Positions 5,534 to 53,256 of a DNA stretch of 64,000 nucleotides are shown in pieces. The stretch comes from an uncultured Alphaproteobacteria bacterium (GTDB lineage Bacteria > Pseudomonadota > Alphaproteobacteria > Rhizobiales > Xanthobacteraceae): NCBI GenBank assembly GCA_963796195.1, contig CAWCKS010000005.1, forward strand, positions 99,191 through 163,190, written 5' to 3'. The position numbers and the translations under genes were made by a program. The notes under the pieces were generated by a model that did not search any database, had not been told where the DNA came from, and was given only the letters and a program-made list of their open reading frames with translations. Every line of letters begins with the position of its first letter. Positions within the stretch are counted from its first letter, which is position 1.

Positions 5534-6265
5534 ATGAAAACAGCCCAGCCGAAACTCCGATCGCCATTACGAAGTCGCGCCCGGCGGGCCGCAGCCGGGC
5601 GGCCGGCCGACCCCGTCGCCGCAGGCGACGCCGGCACAGCTGGCGACACCGCCGCCGCCATCTCCCGCCGCGCCGCCGGCGCTGCGGCCAAGCGCCAGGC
5701 CATCCTCGAAGCCGCGCTCGATGAATTCTCCGCCCGCGGGTTTGCCGCCACGCGGATGGACGACGTTGCCGAACGGGCCGGCGTCGCCAAGGGTACGATC
5801 TACCTCTACTTCAAGGACAAGGAGGCGCTGTTCCAGGAACTGGTGCGGACCTCGCTGGTTCCGATCGTCGGTGGCCTGAAGATCCCCGAAGGCGTCGAGG
5901 TCTCGGTGCGCGTGCTGCTCGAAGCCTTCGCCGACACGCTGGTCCGCGAAGTGCTGGAGACGCGGCGCGGCGACCTCATTCGGCTCGTGATCTCCGAAGG
6001 CGGGCGGTTTCCGCAGCTCGCCGAATTCCACTATCACGAGGTGATCGAGCGCGGCATCAACGCGATGCGCGGACTGATCGGCTTCGGCCTTGCACGCGGC
6101 GAAATCAAGAATCCAATACTGCAGGAATTTCCGCAGCTCGTTATCGCGCCCGCGCTGGTGGCGTTGATCTGGCAGGGCATGTTCGCAAAATTCGCGCCGC
6201 TCGACGTACGCGCGATGCTGCAAACCCACATTGATCTTCTTCTCGGGCAAGTGAGGACGTCATGA
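5534..6265 (+). CDS. TetR/AcrR family transcriptional regulator
   Basis: HTH GTIYLYFKDKEALF. Arg/Ala-rich N-terminal extension. First gene of the efflux operon. Confidence 0.8.
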   Translation: MKTAQPKLRSPLRSRARRAAAGRPADPVAAGDAGTAGDTAAAISRRAAGAAAKRQAILEAALDEFSARGFAATRMDDVAERAGVAKGTIYLYFKDKEALFQELVRTSLVPIVGGLKIPEGVEVSVRVLLEAFADTLVREVLETRRGDLIRLVISEGGRFPQLAEFHYHEVIERGINAMRGLIGFGLARGEIKNPILQEFPQLVIAPALVALIWQGMFAKFAPLDVRAMLQTHIDLLLGQVRTS

Positions 6266-7056
6266 GACGTACCGTCTCTTTGATCGCAGCGGGCGCGTGC
6301 CTGCTGCTTACCGCCTGCGGGCAGGGCAACGACGCGGGCTATCAGGGTTGGGTCGAGGCCGACCTGATTTTCGTCAGCCCCGATGAAGCCGGGCGCGTTG
6401 TCAAGCTCGACGTCCGTGAGGGCGATCAGATCACCACGGGCAAACCGATCTACGCGCTCGACGACGATTTGCAGCAGGCCGATCTGAACCAGAACAACGC
6501 CTCGCTGCTCAACGCCAAGCAGACTTTCGATCGCGCGCAGGCGCTGATGAAGACCGGCAGCGGCACGCAGGCCAACTACGACACCGCCGAGATGGCGCTG
6601 CGAGTCGCCGAAGCGCGGGTCAACACCTCGCAGACGCGGCTGGCGCGGCGGACCGCGTTTGCGCCGGTCAGCGGCAGCGTGCAGCAAGTCTATTTCCGCG
6701 AGGGCGAGACCGTGCCGGCGCTGCGTCCGGTGCTTTCGATCATGCCGCCGGGCAACATGAAGATCCGCTTCTTCGTCGCGGAGAGCGAATTGCCGAAACT
6801 CGCGCTCGGCGACAGCGTCAAGATCGGTTGCGACGGTTGCGCCGCCGATCTCACGGCAAAGATCTACTTCATCGCAACGACGGCCGAATACACACCACCC
6901 GTGATCTATAGCCAGGACGAGCGCTCAAAACTCGTCTACCTGATCCAGGCGCGGCCTGAAAAGCCCGACGCGCTGCGGGTGGGCCAGCCGGTGAGTGTTT
7001 TCCTGCAGCCGAAGAGTGCGGACTTGAAGGGCGAACCGATCGCGAAGGCGGGGTAA
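6262..7056 (+). CDS. HlyD family membrane-fusion (periplasmic adaptor) lipoprotein
   Basis: Lipobox LLLTAC. Coiled-coil / beta-barrel HlyD pattern. 4-nt overlap with tetR. Confidence 0.75.
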   Translation: MRRTVSLIAAGACLLLTACGQGNDAGYQGWVEADLIFVSPDEAGRVVKLDVREGDQITTGKPIYALDDDLQQADLNQNNASLLNAKQTFDRAQALMKTGSGTQANYDTAEMALRVAEARVNTSQTRLARRTAFAPVSGSVQQVYFREGETVPALRPVLSIMPPGNMKIRFFVAESELPKLALGDSVKIGCDGCAADLTAKIYFIATTAEYTPPVIYSQDERSKLVYLIQARPEKPDALRVGQPVSVFLQPKSADLKGEPIAKAG

Positions 7057-13344: not shown

Positions 13345-14316
13345 ATGACCACTCAATCCACAACGGCTGAGACGCTGCCATATCTGTCATCGGCATCCCT
13401 AGACCGCCTGGCGATTTCCACGCTCGACGTGGTCGACGAGATCGAGCGCCAGATCGTCGGCCAGCGGCGCGGCCAAGTCTGGTGTGCGCCAAAGGCGATC
13501 GTGCTGCCGGGTGACGATCGCTACATCATGGCCACACTTGGGGTCGCGTCCGAGCCTCGCGTACTGGCTACGAAATCGCTGGTGGTCAATCCTCGCAATG
13601 CCGAGCGGGGACTTGCCACCCTCAACTCGCTGATCACCCTTCTCGACAGCGAAACGGGACTGCCGCTCGCGCTGATCGATGGCAATTGGGTGACCGAGAA
13701 GCGCACCGCCGGTCTGAGCGCCGTCGCCGCCAGGCGTCTGGCACGGAGCAATTCGTCATCCGCCGCGTTCATCGGATGCGGCGTTCAGGCGCGCGGTCAC
13801 CTCGAGGCTTTCGCCGACCTTTTTCCGTTGCGGGAAATTCGCGCCTTTGGTCGTGGCGCCAGCAATCGCGATGCACTTTGCCGGTTGGCACAGTCGCGAG
13901 GCATCAAAGCGGTGCCGTGCGATACGGCGAGGGCTGCGGTTGATGGCGCCGACATCGTGGTGACGACAATTACCCTGGTGCCGGAGCCCGTTCCATTCCT
14001 CGATGCGCATTGGTTGAAGGCGGGAAGCTTCACCGCAATGACCGACCTCGCTCTGCCCTGGTTGCCGGAGAGCATGCTGTGCTTCGATCGCATCGTCATC
14101 GACGACCTGGAACAAGAGGCCAAGATGAGCAAGCCCATGATCAAGCCCGAGCTCGTCGCCGGCGACTTGACGGGCCTGGTCTGCGGCGACTTCGCCGGAC
14201 GGCAAAGCGCAAGCGACAGGACGACCTTCGCGTTCCGTGGGATGGCCGTCGGCGATCTCGCAGTCGCAGGACTGGCATATGTCCGCGCGAAGGCGATCGG
14301 CGCGCTTGAAACTTGA
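13345..14316 (+). CDS. Ornithine cyclodeaminase / mu-crystallin family protein
   Basis: OCD_Mu_crystallin Rossmann GCGVQARGHLEAF and family-wide conservation. Confidence 0.75.
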   Translation: MTTQSTTAETLPYLSSASLDRLAISTLDVVDEIERQIVGQRRGQVWCAPKAIVLPGDDRYIMATLGVASEPRVLATKSLVVNPRNAERGLATLNSLITLLDSETGLPLALIDGNWVTEKRTAGLSAVAARRLARSNSSSAAFIGCGVQARGHLEAFADLFPLREIRAFGRGASNRDALCRLAQSRGIKAVPCDTARAAVDGADIVVTTITLVPEPVPFLDAHWLKAGSFTAMTDLALPWLPESMLCFDRIVIDDLEQEAKMSKPMIKPELVAGDLTGLVCGDFAGRQSASDRTTFAFRGMAVGDLAVAGLAYVRAKAIGALET

Positions 14317-14455: not shown

Positions 14456-16108
14456 ATGGATCAGGATCACGAGCACGATCTCGACCGACGTGAGTTCACC
14501 ATTGGCTTCCTGACGGCGAGCTTTGCCGCGCTTGCGCTGCGTCCGACCACCGCCGACTGCGGCGACGGAAAGCCCCAGCACCGCGGTGCTCGACCAGCCC
14601 TGGGCGGTCTGGGACAAGAACGCCAAGCCTGTGCGCGGCGGCATCTTCCGCGTCGCGACCGAGCAATACATCGGCAAGATGAATCCCAATCACTGGCCGG
14701 TGCTGGACTGGGTCACGATGGGCTATTTCCACGAGCGGTTGATGTTTACGGACGGCAACTACAACCCGACCGTGCCGTGGCTCGCCGAGAAGCTGAGCTG
14801 GGAGACGCCGCAGGACGTCGTCATGAAGCTGCGCGAGGGCGTCACCTTCCACGACGGCTCGCCGTTCGACGCCAAGGCCGTGAAATATCAGATCGACTGG
14901 ATCCGCGATCCCGCGAGCAAGACATGGGATGCGGGCTGGCTCGCCCAGCTCGATACGGTCGAGGTGGTCGACGACAGCACGCTGCGCTGGAAATTCAAGA
15001 CGCCGTGGGCCGGCTTCACCGGCGTCATGGCCAATGTTCCCGGCTACGTGTTGTCGGCGAAGGCGTTGCAGGACGATGTCGACAAGTATGACGTTCAGCC
15101 GCAGGGCACGGGCCCCTTCATGCTCGAGGAGGCGAGCCCCGGCAATTTCGTCAAGCTCAAGCGCAATCCGAACTGGTGGTTCGCCAAGGCGAGCGGCAAT
15201 CCCGACATGCCGTACTTCGACGGCATTCTCGTCACGATCATTCCGGACCCGGCGGTGCGGCTCGCCAACCTGCGCGCGGGCAAGATCGACGTGCTTGTGC
15301 TGGACAAATCGCAATACTCCGGCCGCCAAGACCGATCCAGAGCTCAACGTCTACCGCTTCCCCGGCAATCACGTCGCCGCGGTTCGCTTCAACATCACCA
15401 AGAGCGTGTTCCAGGACATTCGTTTGAGGAAAGCGGTCAGCCATGCGATCGACCGCCAGGCGCTGATCGCCGGCACGCAGTTCGGTCTCGCGCGGCTGGC
15501 GAGCTGCATGTATCCGGACGACCACTGGTGTCATAATCCGAACCTCAAGCCGGTGGCCTACGATCCAGACATGTCGAAGAAGCTGCTGGCCGAGGCCGGC
15601 TACGGCTCAGGTCTCACCGTGAAGGGCTACTGGAACAACACGACGATGGGGCAGACCGTCGCCGAGGCGATCAAGGGTATGCTGGCGCAGGTCGGCATCG
15701 ACTGGCAGGTCGACCTGATGCCGCCGGCCGCGCTTGCAACACGTATGCAGAAGGCGGACTATGACCTCGCCGCGGGCGGCTGGATCTTCATCTATGACCC
15801 CGATCTGATGCCGACCGGGCTCTACCATCCGGACAGGCGGTTTCAATTTCGGGCGCAGCAAGAACGACGCCGCGATCGCGCTGATCGAGGCCGGGCGCCA
15901 GGAAGTCGATCTCGACAAGCGTAAGGCGATCTACTGGCAGCTCGAGGAGGTCTTGTACAACTCCTACGAGGACGCGTGGCTGTGGTGGGAGGAAACCGCG
16001 ACCGCCTATCGCAAGCAGGTGCAGGGTTGGGACCACGAAGGCTTCCTGAAATACAAGGACGTCTGGTTCTGGGCGCACCCGTTGTGGTTCAAGGATGGCA
16101 AGGCGTGA
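14456..16108 (+). pseudogene. ABC transporter substrate-binding protein, family 5 (peptide/nickel), Tat signal; at least 3 frameshifts
   Basis: The SBP_bac_5 protein can be reconstructed across three reading frames (ORFs 14456.., 14523..15536, 14929..15924, then the frame ending 16108). RR-motif signal at the N-terminus. Confidence 0.7.
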
Positions 16109-16146
16109 GCCGGGCAGGGCGCAACTGACCCGGTAGGCCACGCAGG

Positions 16147-17104
16147 ATGGGCAAGTACATCGGCATCCGATTGCTGCACGCGCTGGTGATCCTGGCGATC
16201 GTGGTCGTGCTGGTTTTCATCATCGCCCGGATCATTCCGGGCGATGCGATCATGGCGGCGATGGCCGGCAGCGTCGACTTGCATGACCCTTCGGTGGTCG
16301 CGCGAGTCAAGGAGCAATACGGCCTCGACCAGCCCATTCCCGTCCAGTTCGTGGTCTGGCTCGGAGAATTTTTGCGCGGCGATTGGGGCACCTCGATCGG
16401 CACCGGCCAAAAAGTGCTCGACATGTTCGCGCAGCGGCTGCCGGTGACGCTGGAGCTGTTCATCGGCGCGACGCTGTGGTCGATCGCAATCGGTATTCCG
16501 GCCGGCATCATCAGCGCCTTGAAGCGGAACTCCACCGCTGACGTTGTCGTGACGGCGGGCGCGATCGTCGGCGTGTCGATCCCGGCGTTCTGGGAAGCGA
16601 TCGTGCTGATCTATCTGCTCGCCGTGCTGCTGCCGATCTTTCCGCCGTCGGGCTACGTGCCGTTCTCCGAAAGTCCGCTGTTCAACCTGCGCGCCATGGT
16701 GCTGCCAACCTTCGTGCTCGGCACCCATTCCGGCGGGCTGCTGGCGCGCTACGTGCGCTCCAGTCTGCTGGAGGTGCTGGGCCAGGACTACGTTCGGACA
16801 GCGCGTGCAAAAGGGTTTTCGGAGGCCGCGGTCATTGTCGCGGCACGCGCTTAAGCCCGGCATGATCCCGGTCGTCACCGTGCTCGGCCTGTCGTGGGGC
16901 GGGCTGCTTGCCGGCGCTTTCTTCATCGAGATCATCTTCGCCATCCCTGGGCTTGGCCGGATGAGTGTCGACGCGATCTTCCAGAAGGATTACCCGGTGA
17001 TGCAGGCGACGCTGATCGTGGTCTCACTGAACGTGCTCTTGGTCAATCTGCTGGTCGATATCCTCTATGGCTTTCTCGATCCACGGGTGCGGGTGCGCGG
17101 ATGA
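16147..17104 (+). pseudogene. DppB/OppB-type ABC permease with one frameshift near 16835
   Basis: The N-terminal 235 aa (BPD_transp_1) stop prematurely. The conserved RHALKPGMIPVVTVLG... continues in frame +2 (16805..17104). Confidence 0.75.
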
Positions 17105-18009
17105 CGGACACCGTTCGCCCCGCAGCCGTGATCGCGTCACGGGCCTCGTCCCGCCACCCTGCGCTGGCGCTGCTGCGCGCCGTGGCGCGCCATCGGTTGG
17201 CCCGTTTCGGGCTGGTTGTGATCGCCTTGCTGATCTTGATCGCGATCTTTGCGCCGCTGCTCGCGCCCTATAGCCCGACACAGCAGGATCTCTATCGCGT
17301 GCTGGCGCCGCCGAGCCGCGTCCATCTGCTCGGCACCGACAATCTCGGCCGCGACCTGTTGTCCCGCATCTTGTACGGCGCCCGCGTGTCGCTGTTCGTC
17401 GGCATCGTCTCATCGCTGGTGTCGGCATTGATCGGCATTCCGATCGGCCTGGTCGCCGGCTTCAGGGGCGGCGTGATCGACGCTATCATCATGCGCGTCA
17501 CCGACGCGTTCCTCTGCTTCCCGCCGCTGATCTTCATCCTGGCGATGTCGGCAGCGCTCGGTCCCGGCCTGCAGAACGTGATGCTGTCATTCGCGCTGTT
17601 CGGCTGGACCGCGTTCGCCCGGATCACGCGCGGCCAGGTGCTCTTGGTGCGCGAACTGCCGTTCATCGAGGCGGCACGCTCGGTCGGCGTGCCGGCAACG
17701 CGGATCATGTTCCGTCACATCCTGCCGAACATTTTTGCACCGATTCTCGTCGCGATCACCATCGGCATCGGCACCGCGATCCTGGTCGAGAGCGGCGTAT
17801 CGTTCCTCGGCCTTGGCGTGCAGCCGCCGACCGCAAGCTGGGGCAAGGAACTGCGCGTCGGCTTCACCTATCTCGAGGCCGCGCCGCTGTTCTCGATCGC
17901 GCCGGGTGTGATGATCTCGCTCGCGATCATCTCCTTCAACTTCGTCGGCGACGGTCTGCGCGACGCGCTCGACCCGCGGCTGCGCGGCGCCAATCGGGTG
18001 CGGCGTTGA
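17101..18009 (+). CDS. DppC/OppC-type ABC permease
   Basis: Start MTDTVRP at 17101 (ATGA overlap). EAA-loop permease, 6 TM. Confidence 0.8.
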   Translation: MTDTVRPAAVIASRASSRHPALALLRAVARHRLARFGLVVIALLILIAIFAPLLAPYSPTQQDLYRVLAPPSRVHLLGTDNLGRDLLSRILYGARVSLFVGIVSSLVSALIGIPIGLVAGFRGGVIDAIIMRVTDAFLCFPPLIFILAMSAALGPGLQNVMLSFALFGWTAFARITRGQVLLVRELPFIEAARSVGVPATRIMFRHILPNIFAPILVAITIGIGTAILVESGVSFLGLGVQPPTASWGKELRVGFTYLEAAPLFSIAPGVMISLAIISFNFVGDGLRDALDPRLRGANRVRR

Positions 18010-19008
18010 GTGCAGCGGTGACGGAGGCCGCGTCCGAGACGTTGCTCAGCGTGCGCGATCTCACAGTCGAATTCGCGACCGAGGCTGGTGTCGTCACCGC
18101 GGTCGATGGCGTGTCGTTCGACCTGCACAAAGGTGAAATCCTCGCGCTGGTCGGGGAGAGCGGCTGCGGCAAGAGCGCAACTGCGCTGGCGCTGCTGCGG
18201 CTCATCGCCGATCCGCCCGGCCGGATCGCTCATGGCGAAATCCGCTTTCGCGATCAGGACCTCATGTCGGCCGACGATGCGACCGTGCGCGAGATCCGCG
18301 GCAACCGGATCGCCATGATCTTTCAGGAGCCGATGACGAGCCTCAATCCGGTCTACACCATCGGCCGCCAGCTCGGCGAACCGCTCGAGCTGCACAAGAA
18401 CCTTGCCGGCGACACGCTGCTGGCGAAATGCCTGGCGCTGCTGGAGTCGGTCAACATTCCCGAGCCGCGCCGGCGGATGGATAGCTATCCCCACCAGTTC
18501 TCCGGCGGCATGCGCCAGCGCATGATGATCGCGATGGGGATGAGCTGCGACCCGACATCGTCGATTGCCGACGAGCCGACCACGGCGCTCGACGTCACCA
18601 TCCAGGCCCAGCTGCTCGAACTGCTGCAGGCGCAGGTCGCAAGCCATCGCACCGCGCTGCTGCTGATCACGCACAACCTCGGCGTGGTCGCGCGCTATGC
18701 CGATCGCGTCAACGTGATGTATGCCGGCCGCATCGTCGAGAGCGCGACCGCCGATGCGATTCTATCAGGCACCGCGCCACCCCTACACGATCGGCCTGTT
18801 GCGCTCGGTGCCGCGACTGGACCAGCCGAGCTCCGACAAGCTAATTCCGATCGAAGGCCAGCCGCCCAATCCGCTCGATCTGCCCAGTGGCTGTGCTTTC
18901 CACCCGCGCTGTGCGTTCGCGATCGCCAAATGCCGCAGCGAGACGCCGGTGCTGACACGTGGCGCCGATGGTCATGCGGTGGCTTGCTGGGTCGACGTCC
19001 ATGTCTGA
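18006..19008 (+). pseudogene. DppD/OppD-type ABC ATP-binding protein with a frameshift near 18760
   Basis: Walker [17 protein letters not shown]. The oligopeptide C-terminal domain (YQAPRHPYTIGLL...HPRCAFA..C) lies in another frame (18721..19008). Confidence 0.75.
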
Positions 19009-19993
19009 GCCTGTCACCGATAACCTCGTCACACTGCGCGCGCTGGCGGTGCATTTCCCAGTGCTGGGCGGGATGCTGCGCCGCCATCCCGTCGGGACCG
19101 TGCACGCGGTTGACGGCGTCGATCTCGATATCCGCCGCGGCGAGACGCTCGGCCTCGTTGGCGAGAGCGGTTGCGGCAAGTCGACGCTCGGGCGCGCCAT
19201 CCTGCAGCTGGTGCGGCCGACCGCGGGCGAGGTCAACTTCGACGGCACCGAGCTCACCAAGCTCGACGACGATGAGTTACGGCCGCTGCGCCGCCGCATG
19301 CAGATGGTGTTCCAGGATCCGTTCTCCTCGCTCAATCCGCGGATGACCGTCGGCGAAACTGTGGCGGAGCCGATGCTGGTGCACGGGCTTGCGAAGAACG
19401 CCGCCGAAAGCCGCGAGAAGACCGCCGAGCTGTTTGGGATCGTTGGCCTCAATCCAGGCATGCTGGATCGTTTCCCGCACGAATTCTCCGGCGGTCAACG
19501 CCAGCGCATCGGCATTGCGCGTTCGCTCGCGGCGCAGCCGGACTTCATCGTCTGCGACGAGCCGGTATCCGCGCTCGACGTCTCGATCCAGGCGCAGATC
19601 GTCAACCTGTTCGAGGCGTTGCGCGACCGGCTCGGCCTCACATACGTATTCATCGCGCACGACCTTGCGGTGGTGCGGCACCTAAGCGACCGCATCGCCG
19701 TGATGTATCTCGGCAAGATCGTCGAGATTGCGCCGAAGCAAGATTTGTACTCATCACCGCTGCATCCCTACACGCAAGCCTTGCTGTCAGCGGTGCCGGT
19801 GCCGGACCGCGCGATCGAGAAACGTCGCGAGCGCATCGTGCTGCAAGGCGAGGTACCGAGTCCGCTCAATCCGCCGAAAGGCTGCCGGCTGCATCCGCGC
19901 TGCGCCAAAGTGATGAGCCAGTGCCACACAGTCGAGCCGGTGTTGCGGCAGCAGGCCGACGGCCACTGGGTCGCCTGCCATTTGTACGACTAG
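19001..19993 (+). CDS. DppF/OppF-type ABC ATP-binding protein
   Basis: [31 protein letters not shown]-terminal HPYT...HPRCAK domain. Confidence 0.85.
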
Positions 19994-38900: not shown

Positions 38901-39076
38901 GGCGAGGGCTTCCGTAAACTTGCGGTAGGACGGGTTGAGCACTTCGCGAAACCCATCGCCCTTTGCTCCGCGGTTGATGGGTTTTCGCTGCCGCTCAACC
39001 CATCCTACGCGCTGGATTGCATCGGCGCTAATGGGCGTCGCAATAACGACGCAGTAACAACGTAAGGACCAACGAA

Positions 39077-40065
39077 ATGCCCCCACTTCCCCATCGCGCG
39101 CTCGGCAAGCAGGGCCTCAAAGTCTCGGCCATCGGGCTCGGCTGCATGTCGCTGTCCGGCGTCTATGGCGAGGCCAATGACGCCGAGTCCGAGAAACTGA
39201 TCCAGCAGGCGATCGAGCTTGGCGTCGATCACTTCGACTCCTCCGACATGTACGGCTGGGGCCACAACGAGACCGTGCTCGGGCGTGCGCTTAAGGGCCG
39301 CCGCGATCGCGTCGTGCTGGCGACGAAGTTTGGTCAGGTCCGCCGCGAAGGGCAGGGCAACGGCGTCGACGGCAGCCCGAAACACGTGATGCAGGCGTGC
39401 GAGGACAGCCTGAAGCGGCTCGGCACAGAGGTGATCGACCTCTACTACCAGCACCGCGTCGATCCGAGCGTGCCGATCGAGGACACCGTCGGTGCGATGG
39501 CGAAGCTCGTGCAGCAGGGCAAGGTGAAATACCTCGGCCTCTCCGAAGCGCGGCCCGACACCATCCGCCGCGCCCACAAGGTGCATCCGATCTCGGCGGT
39601 GCAGACCGAGTACTCGCTGCTCTATCGCACCGAGGCCGAAGAAACGCGCAAGACCACGCGGGAGCTCGGCATCGGCTACGTCGCCTATTCGCCGCTCGGC
39701 CGCGGCTTCCTTACCGGCGCGATCAAGCAGTTCTCCGATGTTGACGGCCGGCGCGCCGCGCATCCGCGCTTCCAGGAGGCGAATTTCGCGCACAACCGGG
39801 CGCTGGTCGCCAAGGTCGAGAGCCATCGCGGCAGGAGAAGCGCTGCACGCCGGCTCAGGTCACGCTGGCGTGGCTGCTGGCGCAGGGCGACGACGTCGTC
39901 GCCATTCCCGGCACGCGCTACATCAAGCGGGTGCAGGAAAATCTTGGCGCGCTCGAGGTGAAGCTGACGTCCGATGATGTCGCTGCGATCACGAGGGCTG
40001 TGCCTGCGGGCTCGGCTTCGGGCGAGCGCTATCCCGCGGCGGCGATGAAGGCGGTGTATTTGTAG
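39077..40065 (+). pseudogene. Aldo/keto reductase (AKR11/Tas-like), frameshift near 39830
   Basis: LGKQGLKVSAIGLGCMSLSG...DSSDMYG...YYQHRVDP. C-terminal ...CTPAQVTLAWLLAQGDDVVAIPGTR... lies in another frame. Confidence 0.75.
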
Positions 40066-42704: not shown

Positions 42705-43439
42705 CTACACCGTCACGCCACCATCCACTGCGACCTCGGCGCCGGTGATGTAGGAGGCCTCATCCGACAGCAGGAACAGCACGGCCTGCGCGACTTCTTC
42801 CGCGGTGCCGGTGCGGCGCATCGGCACGCTCTTCAGCCGCTTGACGCGCTGGTCGCCGGACCACTCCTTCAGCATGTCGGTCTCGATCGGCCCCGGGTGA
42901 ATCGAGTTGACACGGATCTTGTGCCTCGCGAGGTCCATGGCTGCCGCCTTGGTCATGCCGCGCAGCGCCCACTTCGTCGTGCTGTAGGCGAACGCCTGCG
43001 GCGAGCCGCGCAAGCCAGCGCCCGAGGAGATGTTGACGATCGAGCCGCCGCCGGAGCGTTCCATCGGCCCGACCACGGCCTTCATGCCGAGGAAGCAGCC
43101 GGTCTGGTTGATCAGCAGGTGGCGATTCCACAGGTCGAGGTCGGTCTCGAGCAGGCGCCTCGGCTGATAGATCGCGGCGTTGTTGACGAGACCATGCAGG
43201 CCGCCGAAACTTTCAGCGGTTTGCACCGCGCGGGCCCAATCGGCTTCGCTGGTCACATCCTGGCGCACAAATTTTGCTGAACTGCCGAGTTGCTTCGCGA
43301 GCTGCGAGCCTTCCTTCTCCAGCACGTCGCCGATCACGACCTTCGCGCCTTGCTGCACCAAGAGCCGGCTTTCCGCCGCGCCCTGGCCGCGCGCGCCGCC
43401 AGTGATGAGAATGACTTTGCCGTCGAACCGCGCCATGAG
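42705..43439 (-). CDS. SDR family oxidoreductase
   Basis: TGGARGQG, NNAA, S...YxxxK. Confidence 0.8.
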   Translation of the reverse strand, partial: LMARFDGKVILITGGARGQGAAESRLLVQQGAKVVIGDVLEKEGSQLAKQLGSSAKFVRQDVTSEADWARAVQTAESFGGLHGLVNNAAIYQPRRLLETDLDLWNRHLLINQTGCFLGMKAVVGPMERSGGGSIVNISSGAGLRGSPQAFAYSTTKWALRGMTKAAAMDLARHKIRVNSIHPGPIETDMLKEWSGDQRVKRLKSVPMRRTGTAEEVAQAVLFLLSDEASYITGAEVAVDGGVTV

Positions 43440-43465: not shown

Positions 43466-43514
43466 GCGCATGTCCCGGAAAAGTGGATACCGGTTTTCCG
43501 GAAAGGACATGCGC
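43466..43514. promoter_or_regulatory. 49-bp nested palindrome in the SDR 5' leader (copy 1)
   Basis: GCGCATGTCC-CGGAAAA-gtggatac-CGGTTTTCCG-gaaa-GGACATGCGC, 27 nt upstream of the SDR ATG. Near-identical copy at 46128..46176. Confidence 0.55.
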
Positions 43515-45351: not shown

Positions 45352-46107
45352 TCACCCCCGCCCGACGAACGGCATCTTGGTCGCCATCACCGTCATGAAC
45401 AGCACGTTGGCGTCGAGCGGCAGGCTCGCCATGTACACCACCGCGTTCGCAACCGCTTCAACGTCCATGCGCGGTTCGGGGACGGATTGTCCGCTGGGCT
45501 GCAGCACGCCGCGCGTCATCCGCTCGGTCATCGGCGTTGCCGCATTGCCGATGTCGATCTGGCCGCACGCGATGTCGTAGGCGCGGCCGTCGAGCGACGT
45601 TGACTTCGTCAATCCCGTGATCGCGTGCTTGGTCGAGGTGTAGGCCGCCGACAGCGGCCGCGGCGCGTGCGCGGAAATCGAGCCGTTGTTGATGATGCGG
45701 CCGCCGCGCGGGTTCTGATCCTTCATGATGCGGAATGCTTGCTGCGTGCACAGGAACGGTGCGGTGAGGTTGGTGTCGACGACGGCCTTCCATTGTTCGA
45801 CCGAAACATCCTCGAACGGCACCGCCGGGGCACCGATGCCGGCGTTGTTGAACAAGAGGTCGAGCCGGCCAAAGGTCGCCATCGTCTTGGCGAACAGGGC
45901 TGCGATCTGCCCCGGGTCTTTCATGTCGGTCGGCACCGCAAGCGTCTTGACACCAGTGCCGGCGCCAAGCTTCGCAGTCTCGTCGAGCATGTCCTTGCGC
46001 CGTCCGGCGAGCACGGCATGGTAGCCCGCCTCCATCAGGGCAAGTGCGGTGGCGCGGCCGATGCCGGTGCCGGCACCGGTGACAAGTGCGACTTTCTCTT
46101 GGGCCAT
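45352..46107 (-). CDS. SDR family oxidoreductase
   Basis: [22 protein letters not shown]...K. Confidence 0.8.
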
Positions 46108-46127
46108 GGTGGTTTCCTCGCTTTTTA

Positions 46128-46176
46128 GCGCATGTCCCGGAAAAGTGGGTACCGGTTTTCCGAAAAGGACATGCGC
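46128..46176. promoter_or_regulatory. 49-bp nested palindrome in the SDR 5' leader (copy 2), directly downstream of the Anbu stop
   Basis: GCGCATGTCC-CGGAAAA-gtgggtac-CGGTTTTCCG-aaaa-GGACATGCGC. 21 nt upstream of the SDR ATG and 5 nt from the Anbu stop. Confidence 0.55.
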
Positions 46177-46180
46177 AGAA

Positions 46181-46927
46181 CTAAGTTGCGTTCTTGTAGG
46201 GCGGACGCGGGATGTTCTGGTGTGCGGCGCGGAGCGCCGCCGACCAGCGCGAGCGCAGGTCGTGGAAATAGGGCTCACCGGCTTCGATACGGTGGTTGAG
46301 GTCGGCGTCGCAGACGTCGGGGCGCACCACCAGCACATCGATCGGCATGCCGACGCCGAGATTGGAGCGCATCGTCGAGTCCATCGAGATCAGTGCGATC
46401 TTCAGCGCGTCGTAGAGATCGACGTCATAGGTGATGGCGCGATCGAGCACCGGCTTGCCGTATTTGTGCTCGCCGATCTGCAGGTACGGCGTGTCGGTCG
46501 TGCATTCGATAAAATTGCCGGCCGCGTACATCATGAACAGCCGGAGTTTCGCACCCTTGATCTGGCCGCCGAACAGGAACGAGAGGTCAAAATTGACGTC
46601 CTCGGCCTGCAGCGCCTTGCCCTCGGTCGCATGGACATGACGGATCGCACGGCCGATGCGCTGTGCCGCCTGGAACATGGTCGGCGAGTTCATCAGCGTT
46701 TCAAGCTCGTCAGTGTCCGGATTGACCAGGCCTTCGCTCAAGGTCGAGATCACCGACTGGGTCAGCGCAAGGTTACCGGCCGACGCGATCGCCATGATGC
46801 GCTCGCCCGGCTTCGAGAACACGTGCAGCTTGCGGAACGTCGAGATGTTGTCGAGCCCGGCATTGGTGCGGGTATCGGCGATCATCACGAGCCCGTCGCG
46901 CACCAAAACTCCGCAACAATACGTCAT
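46181..46927 (-). CDS. Anbu (ancestral beta-subunit) proteasome-homologue peptidase
   Basis: [24 protein letters not shown] (Ntn-hydrolase Thr nucleophile context). Last gene of the cpATP-grasp / alpha-E / transglutaminase operon. Confidence 0.75.
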
Positions 46928-47013
46928 CTGCCGCCCTTGGAGTTTTTCTTGTGCTGCTTTTTACGCGCTCGGCGAAGGGGCGGCAATATCGGCCGACGTC
47001 GATCATCTAACTC

Positions 47014-47116
47014 GTCATTCCGGGGCGCGAGCGAAGCGAGCGAGCCCGGAATCCATAACCACCGCAGGGAGTATGGATTCCGGGCCCGCGCGAAAGTGCG
47101 CGCGTCCCGGAATGAC
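47014..47116. repeat. REP/BIME-like inverted repeat pair (gtcattccgggg...cccggaatcc / ggattccggg...cccggaatgac)
   Basis: Two imperfect palindromes in inverted orientation between Anbu and the transglutaminase gene. Confidence 0.5.
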
Positions 47117-47147
47117 GGCGTATTAAGCGGCCGCGCTCCGCAAGAAA

Positions 47148-47972
47148 CTAAGACTGGCTTTGCCGCCCGGCCTGATCGACGCGGACCGTAACCGACAGCG
47201 TTTCCGTGCCGCCGCCATAGCGGGTGCCGCGCACCGGCGCCGCGCCGAGATAGTCGAGGCCGATCGCGACGCGGGCGTGCGCATCTGTGGTCGAGATTCC
47301 GTTGGCCGGATCGAAGCCGACCCAGCCGAGATCAGGCACGAAGGCCTCGGCCCAGGCGTGGCCCGCTTCCTGGTGCACGTCGCCATCGGTGCGAAAGAAG
47401 TGGCCGGAGACGAAGCGCGCGGGTACGCCGACCGAGCGCGCCGAGGCAATGAAGATATGCGCGTAATCCTGGCAGACGCCGCGCTTCAACTTGAACGCTT
47501 CGATGGCCGACGTGCCGGTGTTGGTCGGATCGGTGTCGAAGGCCATGTATTCGTTGAGCTGCAGCAGCAGCCCGTGCAGGAAGTCGAGCGTGTTGCCCTC
47601 GGACTCCTCGAACATCTGCCGCGCCATCTTTCGCATGGCGCCGTCGGCCTCGGTGAGCGGTGTCGCGCGCAGGAACAGGCTTGGCGGAAAGCGCTCGACG
47701 GCACCGCGCAGGATGCCGCCGGTGTCCTGTGTATCGATTTGTCCCGCGACATGCACGGTCAGATCGGCGAGGGGACCGTGGCTGAACACGTGGGTGATAT
47801 TGCCGAACGCGTCGTACTGCATGTCGAGCCGAGCATCGACCGAGACGTCGACCTGCCAGTTCGCGACATACTGGCCGTCGTGATTGCCAGGCGTCATGCG
47901 CAGCACCTGGATCACGCCGGTCGCGGGCGGGTCATACTCGTAGGTGGTGGAATGGGAAATCCGCAGGCGCAT
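47148..47972 (-). CDS. Transglutaminase-like cysteine protease family protein
   Basis: Bact_transglu_N plus TGase core KRGVCQDYAHIFIA...GHAWAEAF...D. Confidence 0.8.
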   Translation of the reverse strand: MRLRISHSTTYEYDPPATGVIQVLRMTPGNHDGQYVANWQVDVSVDARLDMQYDAFGNITHVFSHGPLADLTVHVAGQIDTQDTGGILRGAVERFPPSLFLRATPLTEADGAMRKMARQMFEESEGNTLDFLHGLLLQLNEYMAFDTDPTNTGTSAIEAFKLKRGVCQDYAHIFIASARSVGVPARFVSGHFFRTDGDVHQEAGHAWAEAFVPDLGWVGFDPANGISTTDAHARVAIGLDYLGAAPVRGTRYGGGTETLSVTVRVDQAGRQSQS

Positions 47973-48030
47973 GGCTTGTTTACGTCGGTTTCAGGCTCTC
48001 TGCGGACGCTATCCAAAGCGTCAGGCGAAC

Positions 48031-48972
48031 TCAAATCAGATATTGCTTGCCGATGATCTCACCGAGGCGGTTGTTGTCGCCGATGAACTCCTCGATGAAC
48101 TCGTGCAGGCCGCGCTGAAAGATGTCGTCCATGTGGCTGTGTTCGAGGCGGTTGCGGATGCCGCGGGCGTGGCGCTGCGCCGGGCCCTGGCGGCCATAGG
48201 CGACGCCGATCTGGTCGAGGTTGCGAACCAAATTCTCGTAGCAGCTCGCCAGCGACCGCGGCAGCGAGTTGTTGAGGATCAACAGGTCAGCGATCAGCCA
48301 GGGCTTTAGCGTCTCGCGATAGACCCAGTGATAGGCCGTTAGCGCCGAGACCGAGCGCAGGATCGAGGTCCACTGATAGTAGTCGAGGGGCCCGCCGACG
48401 TGCTCGGACTCGGGCAGCAGCATGTGATACTTGACGTCAAGAATGCGCGCAGTGTTGTCGGCGCGTTCCAGATGCAGACCAAGCCGCGAGAACCAGTAGG
48501 CGTCGTTGCGCAACATGGTCCGGTAAGCGGAGCCGTCGAAGCGCAGCGAGGTTTCCTGCACAAAGCGCAGGAAGCGGGTCAGCTCCTCGCGATTCTTGAT
48601 GAGGCCGGACCAGGTCTGTTGCAGCTCGATCCAGGCGCCGTTGATGGTGTCCCACATCTCGGTGGTGAGCGCGGTGCGCACCGAGCGCGAGTTGAGCCGC
48701 GCCGCTTCGATGCAGTTGCGGATCGAGGAGGGATTTGCGGGCGAGAAAGCAAGATATTCAACGACCGCTTGCTCGTCGGCGACTTCGTAGTGCTGGTAAA
48801 AGCCGTCGCCGATGCCGGCGGTGAGCAGCGCCAATTCCCACTCGTTCTTGCCGACATAGGTCGACGGCAGCGAGGTCGCCCGCAGCGTCGCCTCGATGGT
48901 GCGCGCAAGATATTCCGCGCGTTCGACGTAGCGCGCCAACCAGTACAGATTTTCGGCGGTGCGTGAGAGCAT
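48031..48972 (-). CDS. Alpha-E domain protein (DUF403)
   Basis: MLSRTAENLYWLARYVERAE...RFLRF is typical of alpha-E. Confidence 0.8.
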   Translation of the reverse strand: MLSRTAENLYWLARYVERAEYLARTIEATLRATSLPSTYVGKNEWELALLTAGIGDGFYQHYEVADEQAVVEYLAFSPANPSSIRNCIEAARLNSRSVRTALTTEMWDTINGAWIELQQTWSGLIKNREELTRFLRFVQETSLRFDGSAYRTMLRNDAYWFSRLGLHLERADNTARILDVKYHMLLPESEHVGGPLDYYQWTSILRSVSALTAYHWVYRETLKPWLIADLLILNNSLPRSLASCYENLVRNLDQIGVAYGRQGPAQRHARGIRNRLEHSHMDDIFQRGLHEFIEEFIGDNNRLGEIIGKQYLI

Positions 48973-48973
48973 G

Positions 48974-50392
48974 TTAGCCGTCCAGCACCCAGGTGTCCTT
49001 GGTGCCGCCGCCCTGGCTCGAGTTGACGACCAGTGAGCCTTCCTTCAGCGCGACCCGCGTCAGCCCGCCCGGCACGATAGTCGTGTGCTCGCGGCCGGTC
49101 AGGACGAACGGGCGGAGGTCGACGTGGCGCGGGGCAAGGCCTTTTTCGGTCGCGATCGGGCAGGTCGACAGCGCCAGCGTCGGCTGTGCGATAAAGCCTT
49201 CCGGATGCGCCTTCAGCTTGTCGCGGAACGCCGAGATCATCTCCTTCGTCGACGCCGGCCCGATCAGCATGCCGTAACCGCCGGAGCCGTGCACTTCCTT
49301 GACCACGAGCTCGTGCAGGTGCTCGAGTACGTAGGTCAAATCTTTCGGCTCGCGGCAACGCCAGGTCGGCACGTTCTTCAGGATCGGCTCTTCCGAAAGA
49401 TAGAACCGCACGATCTCCGGCATGTAGCTGTAAACGGCCTTGTCGTCCGAAATCCCCGTGCCGACCGCGTTGGCGAGCGTGATGTTGCCGGCCATGTAGG
49501 CCGACATCAGGCCGGGCACGCCGAGCATCGAGTCCGGGCGGAAGGCGAGGGGATCGAGGAAATCGTCGTCGAGCCGGCGATACATCACGTCGACGCGTTT
49601 CAAGCCTTCCGTCGTCCGCATGAAGACTTCTTCGCCCTTGACCATGAGGTCACGGCCTTCAACGAGCTCGATGCCGAGCTTGTCGGCCAGGAAGGAGTGC
49701 TCGTAATAGGCGGAGTTGTAGATGCCGGGCGTCAGCAGCGCGACGCTCGGCTCGCCCGCGGCGGTATCTGGCGCAACTGAACGCAGTGCGGCCAGCAGCG
49801 CATCCGGATAATTCTCGACCGGGGCGACGCGGTGCCGCGCAAAAAGGTCCGGAAACAGCCGCATCATGATCTCACGGTTTTCCAGCATGTAGGACACGCC
49901 CGACGGCGTGCGCGCATTGTCCTCCAGCACATAGAATTGCTCGGCATCGACACGGACGATGTCGACGCCGGCGATGTGGACATAGATGTCGTGCGGCACG
50001 TCCTGGCCGTTCATCTCTGGCCTAAACACGGGGTTCTGGAAGATCAGGTCGTCGGGAATGATGTTGGCGCGCAGGATATCGCGACCGTGGTAGATGTCGC
50101 GCAGGAACAGGTTCAGCGCCTTGACCCGTTGCTTCAGGCCCTTCTCCAGCAGCGTCCACTCTTTCGCGCTGATGATGCGCGGCACCACGTCAAACGGGAT
50201 CAGCCGCTCCTGGGCTTCGGCTTCGCCGTAAACGGCAAAGGTGATGCCGATCCGGCGGAACAACAGCTCGGCTTCCTTGCGCCGATATTCCAGAGCATCC
50301 GGCGGCGTCTCCTTCAGCCAGAGCGCAAGCTCTTTATAGGCGGGACGCAACGCACCGTCCGGCCCGAACATCTCGTCGAAAGCAACCGCCAT
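48974..50392 (-). CDS. Circularly permuted type 2 ATP-grasp protein (DUF404/DUF407)
   Basis: 472 aa. ...ALLTPGIYNSAYYEHSFLA...GVSYMLENR. 2-nt gap to alpha-E. Confidence 0.8.
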   Translation of the reverse strand: MAVAFDEMFGPDGALRPAYKELALWLKETPPDALEYRRKEAELLFRRIGITFAVYGEAEAQERLIPFDVVPRIISAKEWTLLEKGLKQRVKALNLFLRDIYHGRDILRANIIPDDLIFQNPVFRPEMNGQDVPHDIYVHIAGVDIVRVDAEQFYVLEDNARTPSGVSYMLENREIMMRLFPDLFARHRVAPVENYPDALLAALRSVAPDTAAGEPSVALLTPGIYNSAYYEHSFLADKLGIELVEGRDLMVKGEEVFMRTTEGLKRVDVMYRRLDDDFLDPLAFRPDSMLGVPGLMSAYMAGNITLANAVGTGISDDKAVYSYMPEIVRFYLSEEPILKNVPTWRCREPKDLTYVLEHLHELVVKEVHGSGGYGMLIGPASTKEMISAFRDKLKAHPEGFIAQPTLALSTCPIATEKGLAPRHVDLRPFVLTGREHTTIVPGGLTRVALKEGSLVVNSSQGGGTKDTWVLDG

Positions 50393-50629
50393 GTCCTGTT
50401 GGACTGCTTTTCCCCTTACGCCTCCCGAACGACAGGTCGGCTCAAACTGATGGTAGCAAGGGCCGGGCCAGCGCGATAAGCATCGATGTTGGTGTATTGG
50501 TAGCGTGTCGGACCGGGCCGTGCCACAAAAATAGGCTCATCGCTGCCGCTTGCGCAGGCAAGCCGGGGCGGTTTGAATACGAAATGGAATGCGCGGGCCC
50601 AAATGGCACGCGATCGAAGGAGAGGGGTC

Positions 50630-51364
50630 ATGACCGACATCGTCACGGCAGCGGTTCTGGTGATCGGGGATGAGATCCTGTCCGGACGCACCAAGGACAA
50701 GAATATCGGTTTCATTGCCGAGTATCTGACCAACATCGGCATCGACCTGAAAGAGGTCCGCGTCGTCGCCGACGACGAAGACGACATTGTTGCCGCGCTG
50801 AATGCGCTGCGCAAACGGTATGATTATGTGTTCACGACCGGCGGCATCGGCCCGACCCATGACGACATCACCGCCGACAGCATAGCCAAAGCGTTCAGTG
50901 TCGGCATCCACCACCATCCCGACGTGGTCGAGCGGTTCCGCAAGCGCTTCCAGGGCGATTTGAACGAAGCGCGGTTGCGGATGGCGCGGGTGCCCGACGG
51001 CGCGTCGCTGGTGGAGAGCGCGACCATCATGGCGCCGGGGTTCTGGATCGAGAACGTCATCACCATGGCGGGCGTGCCGTCGATCATGCAGGCGATGATG
51101 GATATCGTCGCGCCAAAACTGCGCTCGGGCCCACGGATGCTGTCGGAGAGCGTGCGCGCCAACGCCCGCGAGGGCGACATCGGCACACCTTTGAGGGAAA
51201 TCCAGGAGGCGCATCCGGACACGGTGATCGGCAGCTATCCGTTCATGGACGAGGACAAGAAGCCGAACACCAATCTCGTGGTGCGCTCGCGCGACCCGGA
51301 AAAACTGCGCGCCGCGATGGATGCCGTGCAGGCGATGCTCACGACGGTGAAGCGGACGGTTTAA
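50630..51364 (+). CDS. CinA N-terminal-type molybdopterin-binding (MoCF biosynthesis domain) protein
   Basis: AAVLVIGDEILSGRTKDKN...TTGGIGPTHDDIT. Confidence 0.7.
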   Translation: MTDIVTAAVLVIGDEILSGRTKDKNIGFIAEYLTNIGIDLKEVRVVADDEDDIVAALNALRKRYDYVFTTGGIGPTHDDITADSIAKAFSVGIHHHPDVVERFRKRFQGDLNEARLRMARVPDGASLVESATIMAPGFWIENVITMAGVPSIMQAMMDIVAPKLRSGPRMLSESVRANAREGDIGTPLREIQEAHPDTVIGSYPFMDEDKKPNTNLVVRSRDPEKLRAAMDAVQAMLTTVKRTV

Positions 51365-51836
51365 GTGACGCTCACGACGCGGCCGGTCACGACGGATGAT
51401 CTCGAACTGATCTGCGAGCAGCGCGAGCGGCTGTTTCGCGAATCGAACGCGCCCGGTCGCACCGAGGAAATCATCACAACGCAGACCGCGCATTTCCGGC
51501 CGTGGCTGTCGCCGCGGCTGCGCGACGGCTCGTATTTCGGTTACATTGTCGAGGACGCGGGCAAGCCCATCGCAGGGATCGGCTTGATGCTGATCGACTG
51601 GCCGCCGGGGCCGGCGCATCCGACATCAGACAAGCGCGGCTATGTGCTCAACGTGTTTGTCGAGCCGTCGCACCGGCGGAAAGGTCTTGCAGCAAAGCTG
51701 ATGGAACTTGCCGATCGGGAGTTTGAGGGGCGCGGCGTCGACCTACGCTATCCTGAACGCGACCCGAATGGGCCGGCCGCTCTATGAAAAGCTTGGCTGG
51801 GCGGCAACCAACGAAATGGCGAAGGCCTTGCGGTGA
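51365..51836 (+). pseudogene. GNAT family N-acetyltransferase, frameshift near 51745
   Basis: VEPSHRRKGLAAKLM. C-terminal ...MGRPLYEKLGW... continues in another frame. Confidence 0.55.
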
Positions 51837-52383: not shown

Positions 52384-53163
52384 ATGCCGCGCTTTGCCGC
52401 CAATCTGAACTGGATGTTCCCCGAATGGCCGCTGGCCGAGCGCTTTGCTGCTGCGGCCGACGCCGGCTTCACCGCGATCGAAATCCTGGTGCCCTACGAG
52501 CTGCCCGCTGACGTCATCGCCCGCGAGCTCGCGCGCCACAAGCTGACGGCGGTGCTGTTCAACACGCCAACAGGCAACCGCGACGCCGGCGATCGCGGCC
52601 TTGCCGCACTCCCGGATCGCTTTGACGAATTCAAGGCGTGTATCGAGCTCGCACTGAGCTACGCGAAAGCTTGTAACGTGAAGCTTCTGCACGTTGTCGC
52701 CGGCATCGGCGAGCGCAGCGACCCGCGTGCCGTCGCTGCCTACCGCAAGTCCGTGAGTTGGGCAGCAGAGCGCCTGGCAGGCGACGGCATCGACGTCATG
52801 CTGGAGCCGATCAACCGGCGCGACATTCCCGGCTTCTTCCTCAACGATTTCGGCTTCGCCGCGGACCTGATCAACGAGCTCAAGCTGCCCAAAGTAAAAC
52901 TGCAGTTCGACATCTATCACCGGCAGATCCTGCACGGCGATATCATCGAGGGCCTGCACCAGCTGTTGCCGATCACCGGCCATATTCAGATCGCCGGCGT
53001 GCCCGGCCGCTACGAGCCGGACGACCAGTGCGAACAGAACTATCCGTTCCTGTTCGCCGAGCTCGATCGGCTCGGCTATGCCGGTTACGTCAGCGGCGAG
53101 TACCGGCCTCGGACAACGACGGTCGCGGGGCTTGGCTGGTTCAAGCCGTATGCGGGAAAGTGA
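52384..53163 (+). CDS. hyi: Hydroxypyruvate isomerase family (TIM-barrel sugar-phosphate isomerase/epimerase)
   Basis: MPRFAANLNWMFPE... canonical Hyi/OtnI N-terminus. AP_endonuc_2 fold. Confidence 0.8.
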   Translation: MPRFAANLNWMFPEWPLAERFAAAADAGFTAIEILVPYELPADVIARELARHKLTAVLFNTPTGNRDAGDRGLAALPDRFDEFKACIELALSYAKACNVKLLHVVAGIGERSDPRAVAAYRKSVSWAAERLAGDGIDVMLEPINRRDIPGFFLNDFGFAADLINELKLPKVKLQFDIYHRQILHGDIIEGLHQLLPITGHIQIAGVPGRYEPDDQCEQNYPFLFAELDRLGYAGYVSGEYRPRTTTVAGLGWFKPYAGK

Positions 53164-53256
53164 ATTCGTAGGGTGGGTTAGCGAAGCGTAACCCACCTGC
53201 GATGGTGCTTATTGCGATGGGTTTCGCCAAGAGCTCAACCCATCCTACAGATTGAG

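Follow-up and report, generated by a model that had tools for sequence, protein, structure and literature searches.

A proteasome relative whose substrate is not known, encoded beside an ATP-dependent ligase, is the long-standing puzzle of the Anbu cluster. One such cluster occupies positions 46181-50392 of a 64,000-nucleotide stretch of contig CAWCKS010000005.1 (assembly GCA_963796195.1, positions 99,191 to 163,190; hereafter the window) from an uncultured bacterium of the Xanthobacteraceae. The locus raises the question of whether its four genes form one transcription unit, and of what their products would do together. We consider it fairly probable that this is a copy of the known Anbu cluster which is regulated by sigma54 in nitrogen starvation, in which Anbu would be made by read-through and whose proteins would serve a tag-and-trim turnover.

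Composition of the cluster and its upstream promoter

The window carries, on its minus strand, four co-directional open reading frames (ORFs) in the order ATP-grasp, Alpha-E, transglutaminase-like (TGase) and Anbu (Table 1). Their outer coordinates are exactly those given by the first-pass annotation, all four are full length against their profiles and free of internal stops, and the profile searches recovered all four families. The circularly permuted ATP-grasp protein matches the Pfam families PF14403 (CP_ATPgrasp_2; E 3e-167, 556.7 bits against a cut-off of 32, profile positions 1-374 of 374) and PF04174 (CP_ATPgrasp_1; E 4e-160, 532.8 bits against 23.1). Its closest solved structure is the structural-genomics entry PDB 3N6X (E 2e-206), and we infer a carboxylate-amine ligase activity for it. 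The TGase-like protein combines PF08379 (E 2e-18, 67.5 bits) and PF01841 (E 3e-21, 76.3 bits), both above the Pfam cut-off, and its Cys167/His205/Asp221 align with the Cys-His-Asp triad of PDB 3ISR.

Alpha-E covers PF04168 completely (E 1e-91, 308 bits against 20.8, profile positions 1-294 of 294), and no solved homologue was matched in a search against the PDB. Two ER motifs at residues 17-18 and 169-170 are invariant in 34 homologues; they stand about 150 residues apart in the contexts YVERAEYLAR (15-24) and LHLERADNTAR (166-176). These paired motifs, together with an AlphaFold2 model built on 34 close homologues that is all-helical and of low confidence (mean pLDDT 56.6), suggest that a helical unit of about 150 aa was duplicated within the protein. 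NCBIfam holds no specific models for the ATP-grasp, Alpha-E and TGase proteins. None of the four cluster proteins has a paralogue elsewhere in the window, and PADLOC returned no defence-system match.

A phmmer search of Anbu against all PDB sequences returned five distinct sequences with E values from 4e-83 to 3e-63, all of them Anbu (5LOY 4e-83, 5NYJ 1e-75, 5NYF 5e-75, 5NYW and 5LOX), and zero HslV, BPH or 20S chains at E <= 0.01. The alignment with the designed Anbu 5LOY extends to residue 244 of 248 with the PYF..LR..WS motifs conserved, and it appears to take in the C-terminal helical extension H5, a feature of Anbu that lies beyond the beta-subunit core (PMC8665760). The N-terminus reads MTYCCG, so that Thr1, Asp17 and Lys32 are residues T2, D18 and K33 in ORF numbering, the first of which directly follows the initiator Met without a propeptide; Thr1, Asp17 and Lys32/33 are the catalytic residues named for Anbu (PMC6376114). 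The neighbouring genes belong to COG2308, COG2307 and COG1305, as expected for Anbu. Every sequence-level feature of an Anbu cluster that we examined is found here, and the corresponding genes of relatives are annotated as 'proteasome-type protease' and 'alpha-E domain-containing protein'.

An exact-match look-up of the Anbu protein sequence returned no record. Among public sequences the nearest is L081, a 288-kb metagenome contig from ENA, which has the same gene order and 96-97% DNA identity. The closest named genomes are those of Bradyrhizobium and Afipia, with 85-88% amino-acid identity in Anbu. The order ATP-grasp/Alpha-E/TGase/Anbu is repeated in more than 60 related loci and is syntenic in Bradyrhizobium, Nitrobacter, Afipia and Rhodopseudomonas. 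Judged by gene order and identity, the region is orthologous to the known Anbu cluster and has been vertically inherited in the family of these four genera. The cluster is already known and is ordinary for this bacterial family: descriptions of it go back to 2008/2009 (Valas & Bourne 2008; Fuchs 2017; Piasecka 2018), and its earlier description as a comparative-genomics system of unknown function agrees with the literature (PMC3235984, PMC5666114, PMC6376114, PMC8665760), in which a function of Anbu was still lacking as of 2021 (PMC8665760).

A 237-nt intergenic region separates the ATP-grasp start from a divergent CinA-like gene. It contains the element TGGCCCGGCCCTTGCT, which points toward the ATP-grasp gene and is a near-consensus sigma54-type -24/-12 sequence with its GG and GC boxes at TGGCAC-N5-TTGC spacing. 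The pattern TGGCNCGNNNNTTGCW has a single match in the 64-kb window, where 0.13 would be expected by chance. The element recurs ahead of the ATP-grasp orthologue in each of the 54 loci whose upstream sequence is long enough, and again in R. palustris, Nitrobacter and Afipia (3/3; 57/57 in total), with invariant GG and GC boxes and a variable N4 spacer (GCCC, GGCC, AGCC, CCCC or GTGC). Farther upstream lies a TGC-N11-GCA dyad, a candidate site for NtrC-like bacterial enhancer-binding proteins (bEBP), and its TGC and GCA half-sites are at least 90% conserved in an alignment of 53 related upstream regions.

The conserved promoter fits the published NtrC/sigma54 control of homologous clusters. In Burkholderia cenocepacia, sigma54 and NtrC jointly target the DUF404/407-DUF403-TGase cluster I35_5080-83 when nitrogen is limiting (PMC5491218). 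In P. putida, nitrogen limitation induces PP_2685-PP_2688, which are assigned to NtrB/NtrC (PMC7801951), and the Anbu operon was reported as the most induced in nitrogen-limited P. putida (PMC3235984, note added in proof). By homology to these two clusters, an NtrC-type enhancer-binding protein would switch on transcription of the cluster under nitrogen limitation. The portion of the B. japonicum USDA110 transcription start site (TSS) tables that we examined contains no entry for the sigma54 promoter.

Transcription of Anbu

The first-pass annotation had described a complete operon with gaps of 2-60 bp. The measured gaps are 1 nt (ATP-grasp/Alpha-E), 58 nt (Alpha-E/TGase) and 220 nt (TGase/Anbu, 46928-47147), so that the third junction breaks this description. 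ATP-grasp and Alpha-E are likely to be translationally coupled, because Alpha-E starts 1 nt past the ATP-grasp stop. The 220-nt spacer is occupied by a hairpin repeat formed by nested inverted repeats, with a predicted RNA fold of -73.8 kcal/mol (z = -9.0) and no T-tract after it. A consensus scan of 45900-50800 found no useful sigma70 promoter or intrinsic terminator.

Across 943 kb of related loci, the family to which the repeat belongs counts 62 paired copies, which fall into size classes near 80 and near 103 nt. Hahn et al. (2016, PMC5082802) described this family, from Bradyrhizobium and Rhodopseudomonas, as the repetitive extragenic palindromic (REP) elements Br-REP1 and Br-REP2. The Br-REP2 consensus reads ...GATTCCGGGTTCG-palindrome-CCCCGGAATGA (PMC5082802); the 3' half of the window element, GATTCCGGGCTCGCTCGCTTCGCTCGCGCCCCGGAATGA, agrees with it, and the element is likewise dispersed in many copies. 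It resembles Br-REP elements in its terminal arms GTCATTCCGGG/CCCGGAATGAC, its Br-REP2-like 3' half (GATTCCGGGCTCG...GCCCCGGAATGA), its layout of three stem-loops and its position in a 3' untranslated region (3'-UTR) or intergenic region. It differs from Br-REP1 in belonging to the class of about 103 nt and in its central stem-loop, which is CCGGAATCCATA-N-TATGGATTCCGG and not the Br-REP1 core CCGGAATCTCGAGATTCCGG. In other genera the TGase-Anbu spacer measures 163-195 nt and also contains REP-type hairpins. By the REP functions summarised in PMC5082802, the hairpin would probably stabilise the upstream three-gene message and lower the output of Anbu relative to it.

The same junction is the variable one among relatives. 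In Bradyrhizobium-like loci the median distance is 4 nt between ATP-grasp and Alpha-E (none above 300 nt), 109 nt between Alpha-E and TGase (above 300 nt in 1/61) and 688 nt between TGase and Anbu (above 300 nt in 44/64 and above 1 kb in 24), with a range in Bradyrhizobium from 55 to more than 5600 bp. The inserts include unrelated genes for a carboxymuconolactone-decarboxylase family protein, an MFS transporter, a ClC channel, an acyl-CoA dehydrogenase and a methyltransferase. Others lie on the opposite strand, namely a full-length SBP_bac_5 gene (loci L004, L005, L022, L031, L038, L043 and L053) and an Amidohydro_2 gene (L006). As far as gene order tells, the junction acts like a hotspot for recombination or insertion in Bradyrhizobium. 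The opposite-strand inserts often adjoin Br-REP copies. At locus L019, from a Bradyrhizobium genome, Anbu (6001-6744) is preceded only by a distant TGase-like gene (5599-5892; 31% identity over 109 aa), with no ATP-grasp or Alpha-E within 6 kb, and seven other loci have no partners within 6 kb upstream of Anbu.

Regardless of the preceding gene, the core AAATT[GA]G[CA]TA[GC] stands 42-63 nt before the Anbu ATG in 66 of 80 loci. It is part of GGGGTTGGA-N9-GAAATTGGCTAGTAAT and is found nowhere else in the related loci. Differential RNA sequencing of B. japonicum USDA110 mapped a TSS at 6177290 (+) for blr5617, with the upstream 40-mer tgggGTTGGAgcggcccccgaaattgGCTAGTaATTccgc and RpoD-like -35/-10 boxes at -36 and -14 (PMC4842269 supplement). 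With up to 4 mismatches this 40-mer matches 17 loci and always ends 22-27 nt before the Anbu start; by this 40-nt promoter match only, blr5617 would be the Anbu orthologue. An own RpoD-type promoter of Anbu in Bradyrhizobium is experimentally supported, because the conserved motif coincides with the mapped USDA110 TSS.

The core motif is absent from the window. What stands in its place is GTTAGA-N17-TATTGC, which aligns with the Bradyrhizobium GTTGGA-N16-GCTAGTAAT. The -35-like GTTAGA is kept and the -10 box is degenerate both here and in L081, and the spacing of the boxes differs by 3 nt between these two 97%-identical sequences, so that the remnant seems to be unconstrained in the window. 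The Anbu-proximal promoter thus appears to have decayed in this lineage, which makes read-through from the sigma54 promoter the more likely source of Anbu mRNA. A sigma54 element directly upstream of Anbu was rejected by eye, as the GG and GC boxes stand at the wrong distance from each other, both in the window spacer and in the Bradyrhizobium motif. In wild-type P. putida under nitrogen limitation, RNA-seq gave 1.1-fold for Anbu (PP_2685) against 11-15-fold for the upstream three genes (PMC7801951, Table 2), which hints that Anbu is partly uncoupled even in this canonical operon.

What stands of the operon description is four genes in fixed order on one strand; a tight single unit is left unsupported by the REP-filled spacer, the variable junction and the own promoter of Anbu in relatives. 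From the junction statistics, the inserted genes, the Anbu-specific motif and the mapped USDA110 TSS, Anbu reads as loosely attached to the ligase/Alpha-E/TGase core. The first three genes would form a compact sigma54-driven unit, and Anbu would then be made by read-through across the REP hairpin.

Two other arrangements were weighed. A tight operon, co-transcribed and co-expressed as a stoichiometric four-protein system, is tentatively possible: the genes are co-directional with no terminator-like or sigma70-consensus site between them, the only strong promoter signal lies upstream of the first gene, and the Anbu-proximal promoter is degenerate with shifted spacing. It has to contend with a third gap that holds a hairpin of -74 kcal/mol, with relatives whose junction tolerates inserts of more than 5.6 kb including opposite-strand genes, with their separately mapped Anbu TSS, and with the P. 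putida data set in which Anbu did not follow the other three genes. Two independent units in the window, a sigma54-driven ATP-grasp/Alpha-E/TGase unit and a separately promoted Anbu with the downstream short-chain dehydrogenase (SDR), seem unlikely to us. The Anbu/SDR junction, called the tightest and most conserved of the Bradyrhizobium-like loci (median 39 nt, above 300 nt in 3/73), joins genes that are directly adjacent on the same strand in 73 of 78 loci; GTTAGA remains at its 17-nt spacing to TATTGC; and Br-REP elements typically lie in 3'-UTRs (PMC5082802). Against this arrangement, the window lacks the core motif, its box spacing is unlike that of L081, and the consensus scan found no promoter. 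Moreover, 1-2 genes separate Anbu from the SDR in Afipia and R. palustris, and beyond Bradyrhizobium direct adjacency is seen only in Nitrobacter, so the pairing may be plain inherited synteny.

For the Bradyrhizobium family as a whole, a modular organisation is a real possibility, which we would put somewhat short of even. A sigma54-controlled nitrogen-starvation core would be split by a REP-seeded hotspot from a separately promoted and largely constitutive unit of Anbu with the downstream SDR, and the window lineage would have lost the Anbu promoter secondarily and now use read-through. If this is true, Anbu need not be made together with the ligase module, which would help to explain why co-expression and pull-down searches for a complex or an activity have failed.

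Table 1 Positions of the Anbu cluster and associated elements in the window
Feature	Position	Strand	Remarks
Sigma54-type -24/-12 element TGGCCCGGCCCTTGCT	50455..50470	-	begins 78 nt upstream of the ATP-grasp ATG
Candidate enhancer dyad TGC-N11-GCA (bEBP/NtrC-like)	50544..50560	-	about 75-90 nt upstream of the -24 element
Circularly permuted ATP-grasp protein (amidoligase-type), 472 aa	48974..50392	-	PF14403, PF04174, PDB 3N6X
Alpha-E protein, 313 aa	48031..48972	-	PF04168
Transglutaminase-like protein (Bact_transglu_N + Transglut_core), 274 aa	47148..47972	-	PF08379 + PF01841
Br-REP-type nested hairpin repeat, 105 nt, arms CGTCATTCCGGG / CCCGGAATGACG	47013..47117	.	in the 220-nt spacer
Degenerate remnant of an Anbu-proximal promoter (putative), GTTAGA-N17-TATTGC	46982..47012	-	aligns with Bradyrhizobium GTTGGA-N16-GCTAGTAAT
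Anbu, proteasome-like Ntn hydrolase, 248 aa	46181..46927	-	PDB Anbu entries
Imperfect 49-nt hairpin	46128..46176	.	between the Anbu stop (4 nt before the hairpin) and the SDR start
Short-chain dehydrogenase, 251 aa, downstream neighbour of Anbu	45352..46107	-	generic SDR

The SDR could be assigned to no specific family beyond generic SDR. It follows Anbu in the window after 73 nt and is a possible fifth co-transcribed gene, as its position suggests. Between the two genes lies an imperfect hairpin, and the earlier remark that Anbu abuts one of two 49-bp palindromes is borne out by a second copy at 43466-43514 (the two copies in the window read GCGCATGTCC...GGGACATGCGC). Each copy stands about 20-35 nt upstream of a different SDR start (45352-46107 and 42705-43439, both on the minus strand). 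The predicted RNA folds are -26.5 kcal/mol for the Anbu-proximal copy (z = -3.7) and -28.7 kcal/mol for the second (z about -3.6). The Anbu-proximal copy has no U-tract, and L081 lacks 31 nt of it. Rfam gave only a sub-threshold match to this hairpin (Brucella sRNA BASRCI27, 30.6 bits against a gathering score of 59.8). From its placement, the hairpin might serve as a shared operator or as an element of the 5'-UTR, or it might be one more REP.

Possible biochemistry

In the explanation that we favour, the ATP-grasp protein, aided by Alpha-E, would spend ATP on an amide or isopeptide bond at a peptide or protein carboxylate, while the TGase-like thiol enzyme and Anbu would hydrolyse amide bonds. 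The Yersinia ATP-grasp protein does release Pi from ATP, the only activity reported for it (PMC6376114), and Anbu forms an open dodecameric ring without an AAA+ partner (PMC6376114, PMC5666114). In the proposed scheme the four proteins would be a tag-and-trim module that channels proteins or peptides into turnover and recycles amino nitrogen in starvation. The Pup-proteasome of actinobacteria offers an analogy, since it also unites an ATP-dependent amide ligase, an amide hydrolase and a proteasome-family protease, and it is linked to amino-acid recycling under nitrogen starvation. The folds of the ligases are unrelated, glutamine-synthetase-like in PafA/Dop and circularly permuted ATP-grasp in the Anbu cluster. 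To our knowledge, the Anbu system, unlike the Pup-proteasome, has no Pup-like tag gene and no AAA+ unfoldase, and its open split ring has no demonstrated proteolysis.

Taken alone, the tag-and-trim biochemistry is the doubtful part of the explanation, and a number of points weigh against the explanation at this and other steps. Anbu has shown no peptidase activity on standard proteasome substrates and no stable complex with the other three proteins (PMC6376114, PMC5666114). On the side of regulation, the TGC-N11-GCA dyad is a candidate activator site only, and no RpoN or NtrC genes turned up in the window, where no search was aimed at them. The sigma54 dependence of homologous clusters is not uniformly documented, because PP_2686-88 were still induced 14-20-fold in a P. 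putida strain termed an rpoN mutant (PMC7801951). As for Anbu itself, co-transcription across the REP hairpin stands as a proposal, and a weak internal promoter at GTTAGA-N17-TATTGC is possible in the window.

The main rival to the biochemical reading, which we regard as rather unlikely, is a role of the ligase module in making or remodelling a small peptide or metabolite, such as a glutathionylspermidine-like conjugate or a nitrogen-rich peptide, with Anbu and the TGase-like protein as its peptidases. 3N6X was deposited as a 'putative glutathionylspermidine synthase'; a peptide-synthesis system with an Anbu peptidase is one reading offered in comparative genomics (PMC5666114, citing Iyer 2009); and the missing complexes and proteasome-type activity fit a non-protein substrate. 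Against such a role, no carrier, exporter or precursor-peptide gene is conserved beside the cluster in the related loci, the large dodecameric Anbu is typical of protein-handling proteases (PMC5666114), and there is no known product.

The cluster in its contig and in its family

All four genes are under strong purifying selection, because their dN/dS values against the 97%-identical L081 are 0.027 (ATP-grasp), 0.047 (Alpha-E), 0.045 (TGase) and 0.085 (Anbu); no coding indel separates the two copies. It had been argued at the first pass that an intact operon among many frameshifted neighbours points to selection. Selection is real by these values, and the argument from intactness is weak. With frameshifts occurring about once in 6 kb of coding sequence, chance alone would leave about half of all 3.9-kb stretches intact.

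The frameshifts themselves are partly as described. A GC-phase frame plot with a simple 7-state frame model gave about nine candidates over the 64 kb, of which five fall in a single ABC-transporter operon (14.5-19 kb); the model is crude, it misses genes of modest GC3 such as the OCD gene at 13345-14316, and the count is a rough lower bound. In this oligopeptide-type operon (window 14500-19400, several frame changes) the SBP_bac_5 gene is split near 15328, with profile positions 3-180 in one ORF and 181-353 in another, and the first permease is truncated near 16793. Further candidate frame changes lie near 15842, 18754 and 18955. Close to the cluster the picture is different: among about nine genes within 5 kb, only a GNAT gene is broken, by a 1-bp insertion at 51740 relative to L081. 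In the aldo-keto reductase at 39357-39833, nine single-base indels separate the window from L081. L081 in turn breaks the SDR (at the equivalent of 45763) and an alcohol dehydrogenase (two indels, at the equivalents of 55667 and 55849). Because two 97%-identical sequences each break different genes, residual assembly error in one or both is the parsimonious explanation, with real pseudogenes possible.

A decaying remnant or an assembly artefact is therefore very improbable as an account of the cluster: there are frameshifts elsewhere in the window and many single-base indels against L081, and the four ORFs are nonetheless full length, free of indels against L081, under selection (dN/dS 0.03-0.09) and in possession of their catalytic residues, which refutes decay. 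The chance that the 248-aa protein is an HslV-, BPH- or 20S-type subunit, a possibility the first-pass annotation itself had raised, is negligible and we consider it ruled out by the PDB search, which matched Anbu entries only: a weak 27-bit hit to Pfam's general Proteasome profile and scores far below the cut-offs of archaeal beta-subunit NCBIfam models stand against an alignment across the Anbu-specific C-terminus and against locus neighbours that include no HslU or other AAA+ gene adjoining Anbu. Several public gene calls (P0028, P0029, P0038, P0067, P0039 and P0060) fuse Anbu with another gene, either the downstream SDR (386-426 aa) or an upstream gene that NCBI names carboxymuconolactone-decarboxylase (426-431 aa). 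The fusions are probably artefacts, caused by start codons or frameshifts, through which Anbu is mislabelled in databases.

The flanks of the cluster differ from those of L081 at two sites. At 53157-53255, L081 carries an extra Lactamase_B-family gene of about 0.93 kb, and at 38937-39074 it has an additional 1.3 kb or so with a MarR regulator and an SDR. Both are small strain-level variations in gene content.

Compared with the Anbu operons of P. putida (PP_2688-PP_2685), P. aeruginosa and Yersinia bercovieri, the window has the same four families in the same order, and it shares Thr1/Asp17/Lys32, the lack of an AAA+ partner and the link to nitrogen limitation, here through the conserved sigma54 promoter. 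It differs in its 220-nt last junction with the REP hairpin and in the conserved downstream SDR, and in that Anbu of its sister genus is often separated by inserted genes and has its own promoter. With the solved Anbu proteins of Hyphomicrobium, Yersinia and Pseudomonas the similarity runs over the full length including the C-terminal extension, the window protein being known from sequence alone. The I35_5080-5083 cluster of B. cenocepacia has the same ligase/Alpha-E/TGase core and a matching promoter type (PMC5491218); it differs by a second, large TGase-like protein and by having no protein described as Anbu, which shows that the three-gene core needs no Anbu beside it in order to work.

This copy adds no new component to the Anbu cluster and by itself leaves the puzzle no more tractable. 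Three by-products of its comparison are worth keeping: the family-wide sigma54 promoter, the REP-marked hotspot between TGase and Anbu, and the separate Anbu promoter of Bradyrhizobium. The first of these directs the hunt for substrates to nitrogen-limited cells. The genetic and transcriptional uncoupling of Anbu suggests that the ligase/TGase core be studied without assuming a complex with Anbu.

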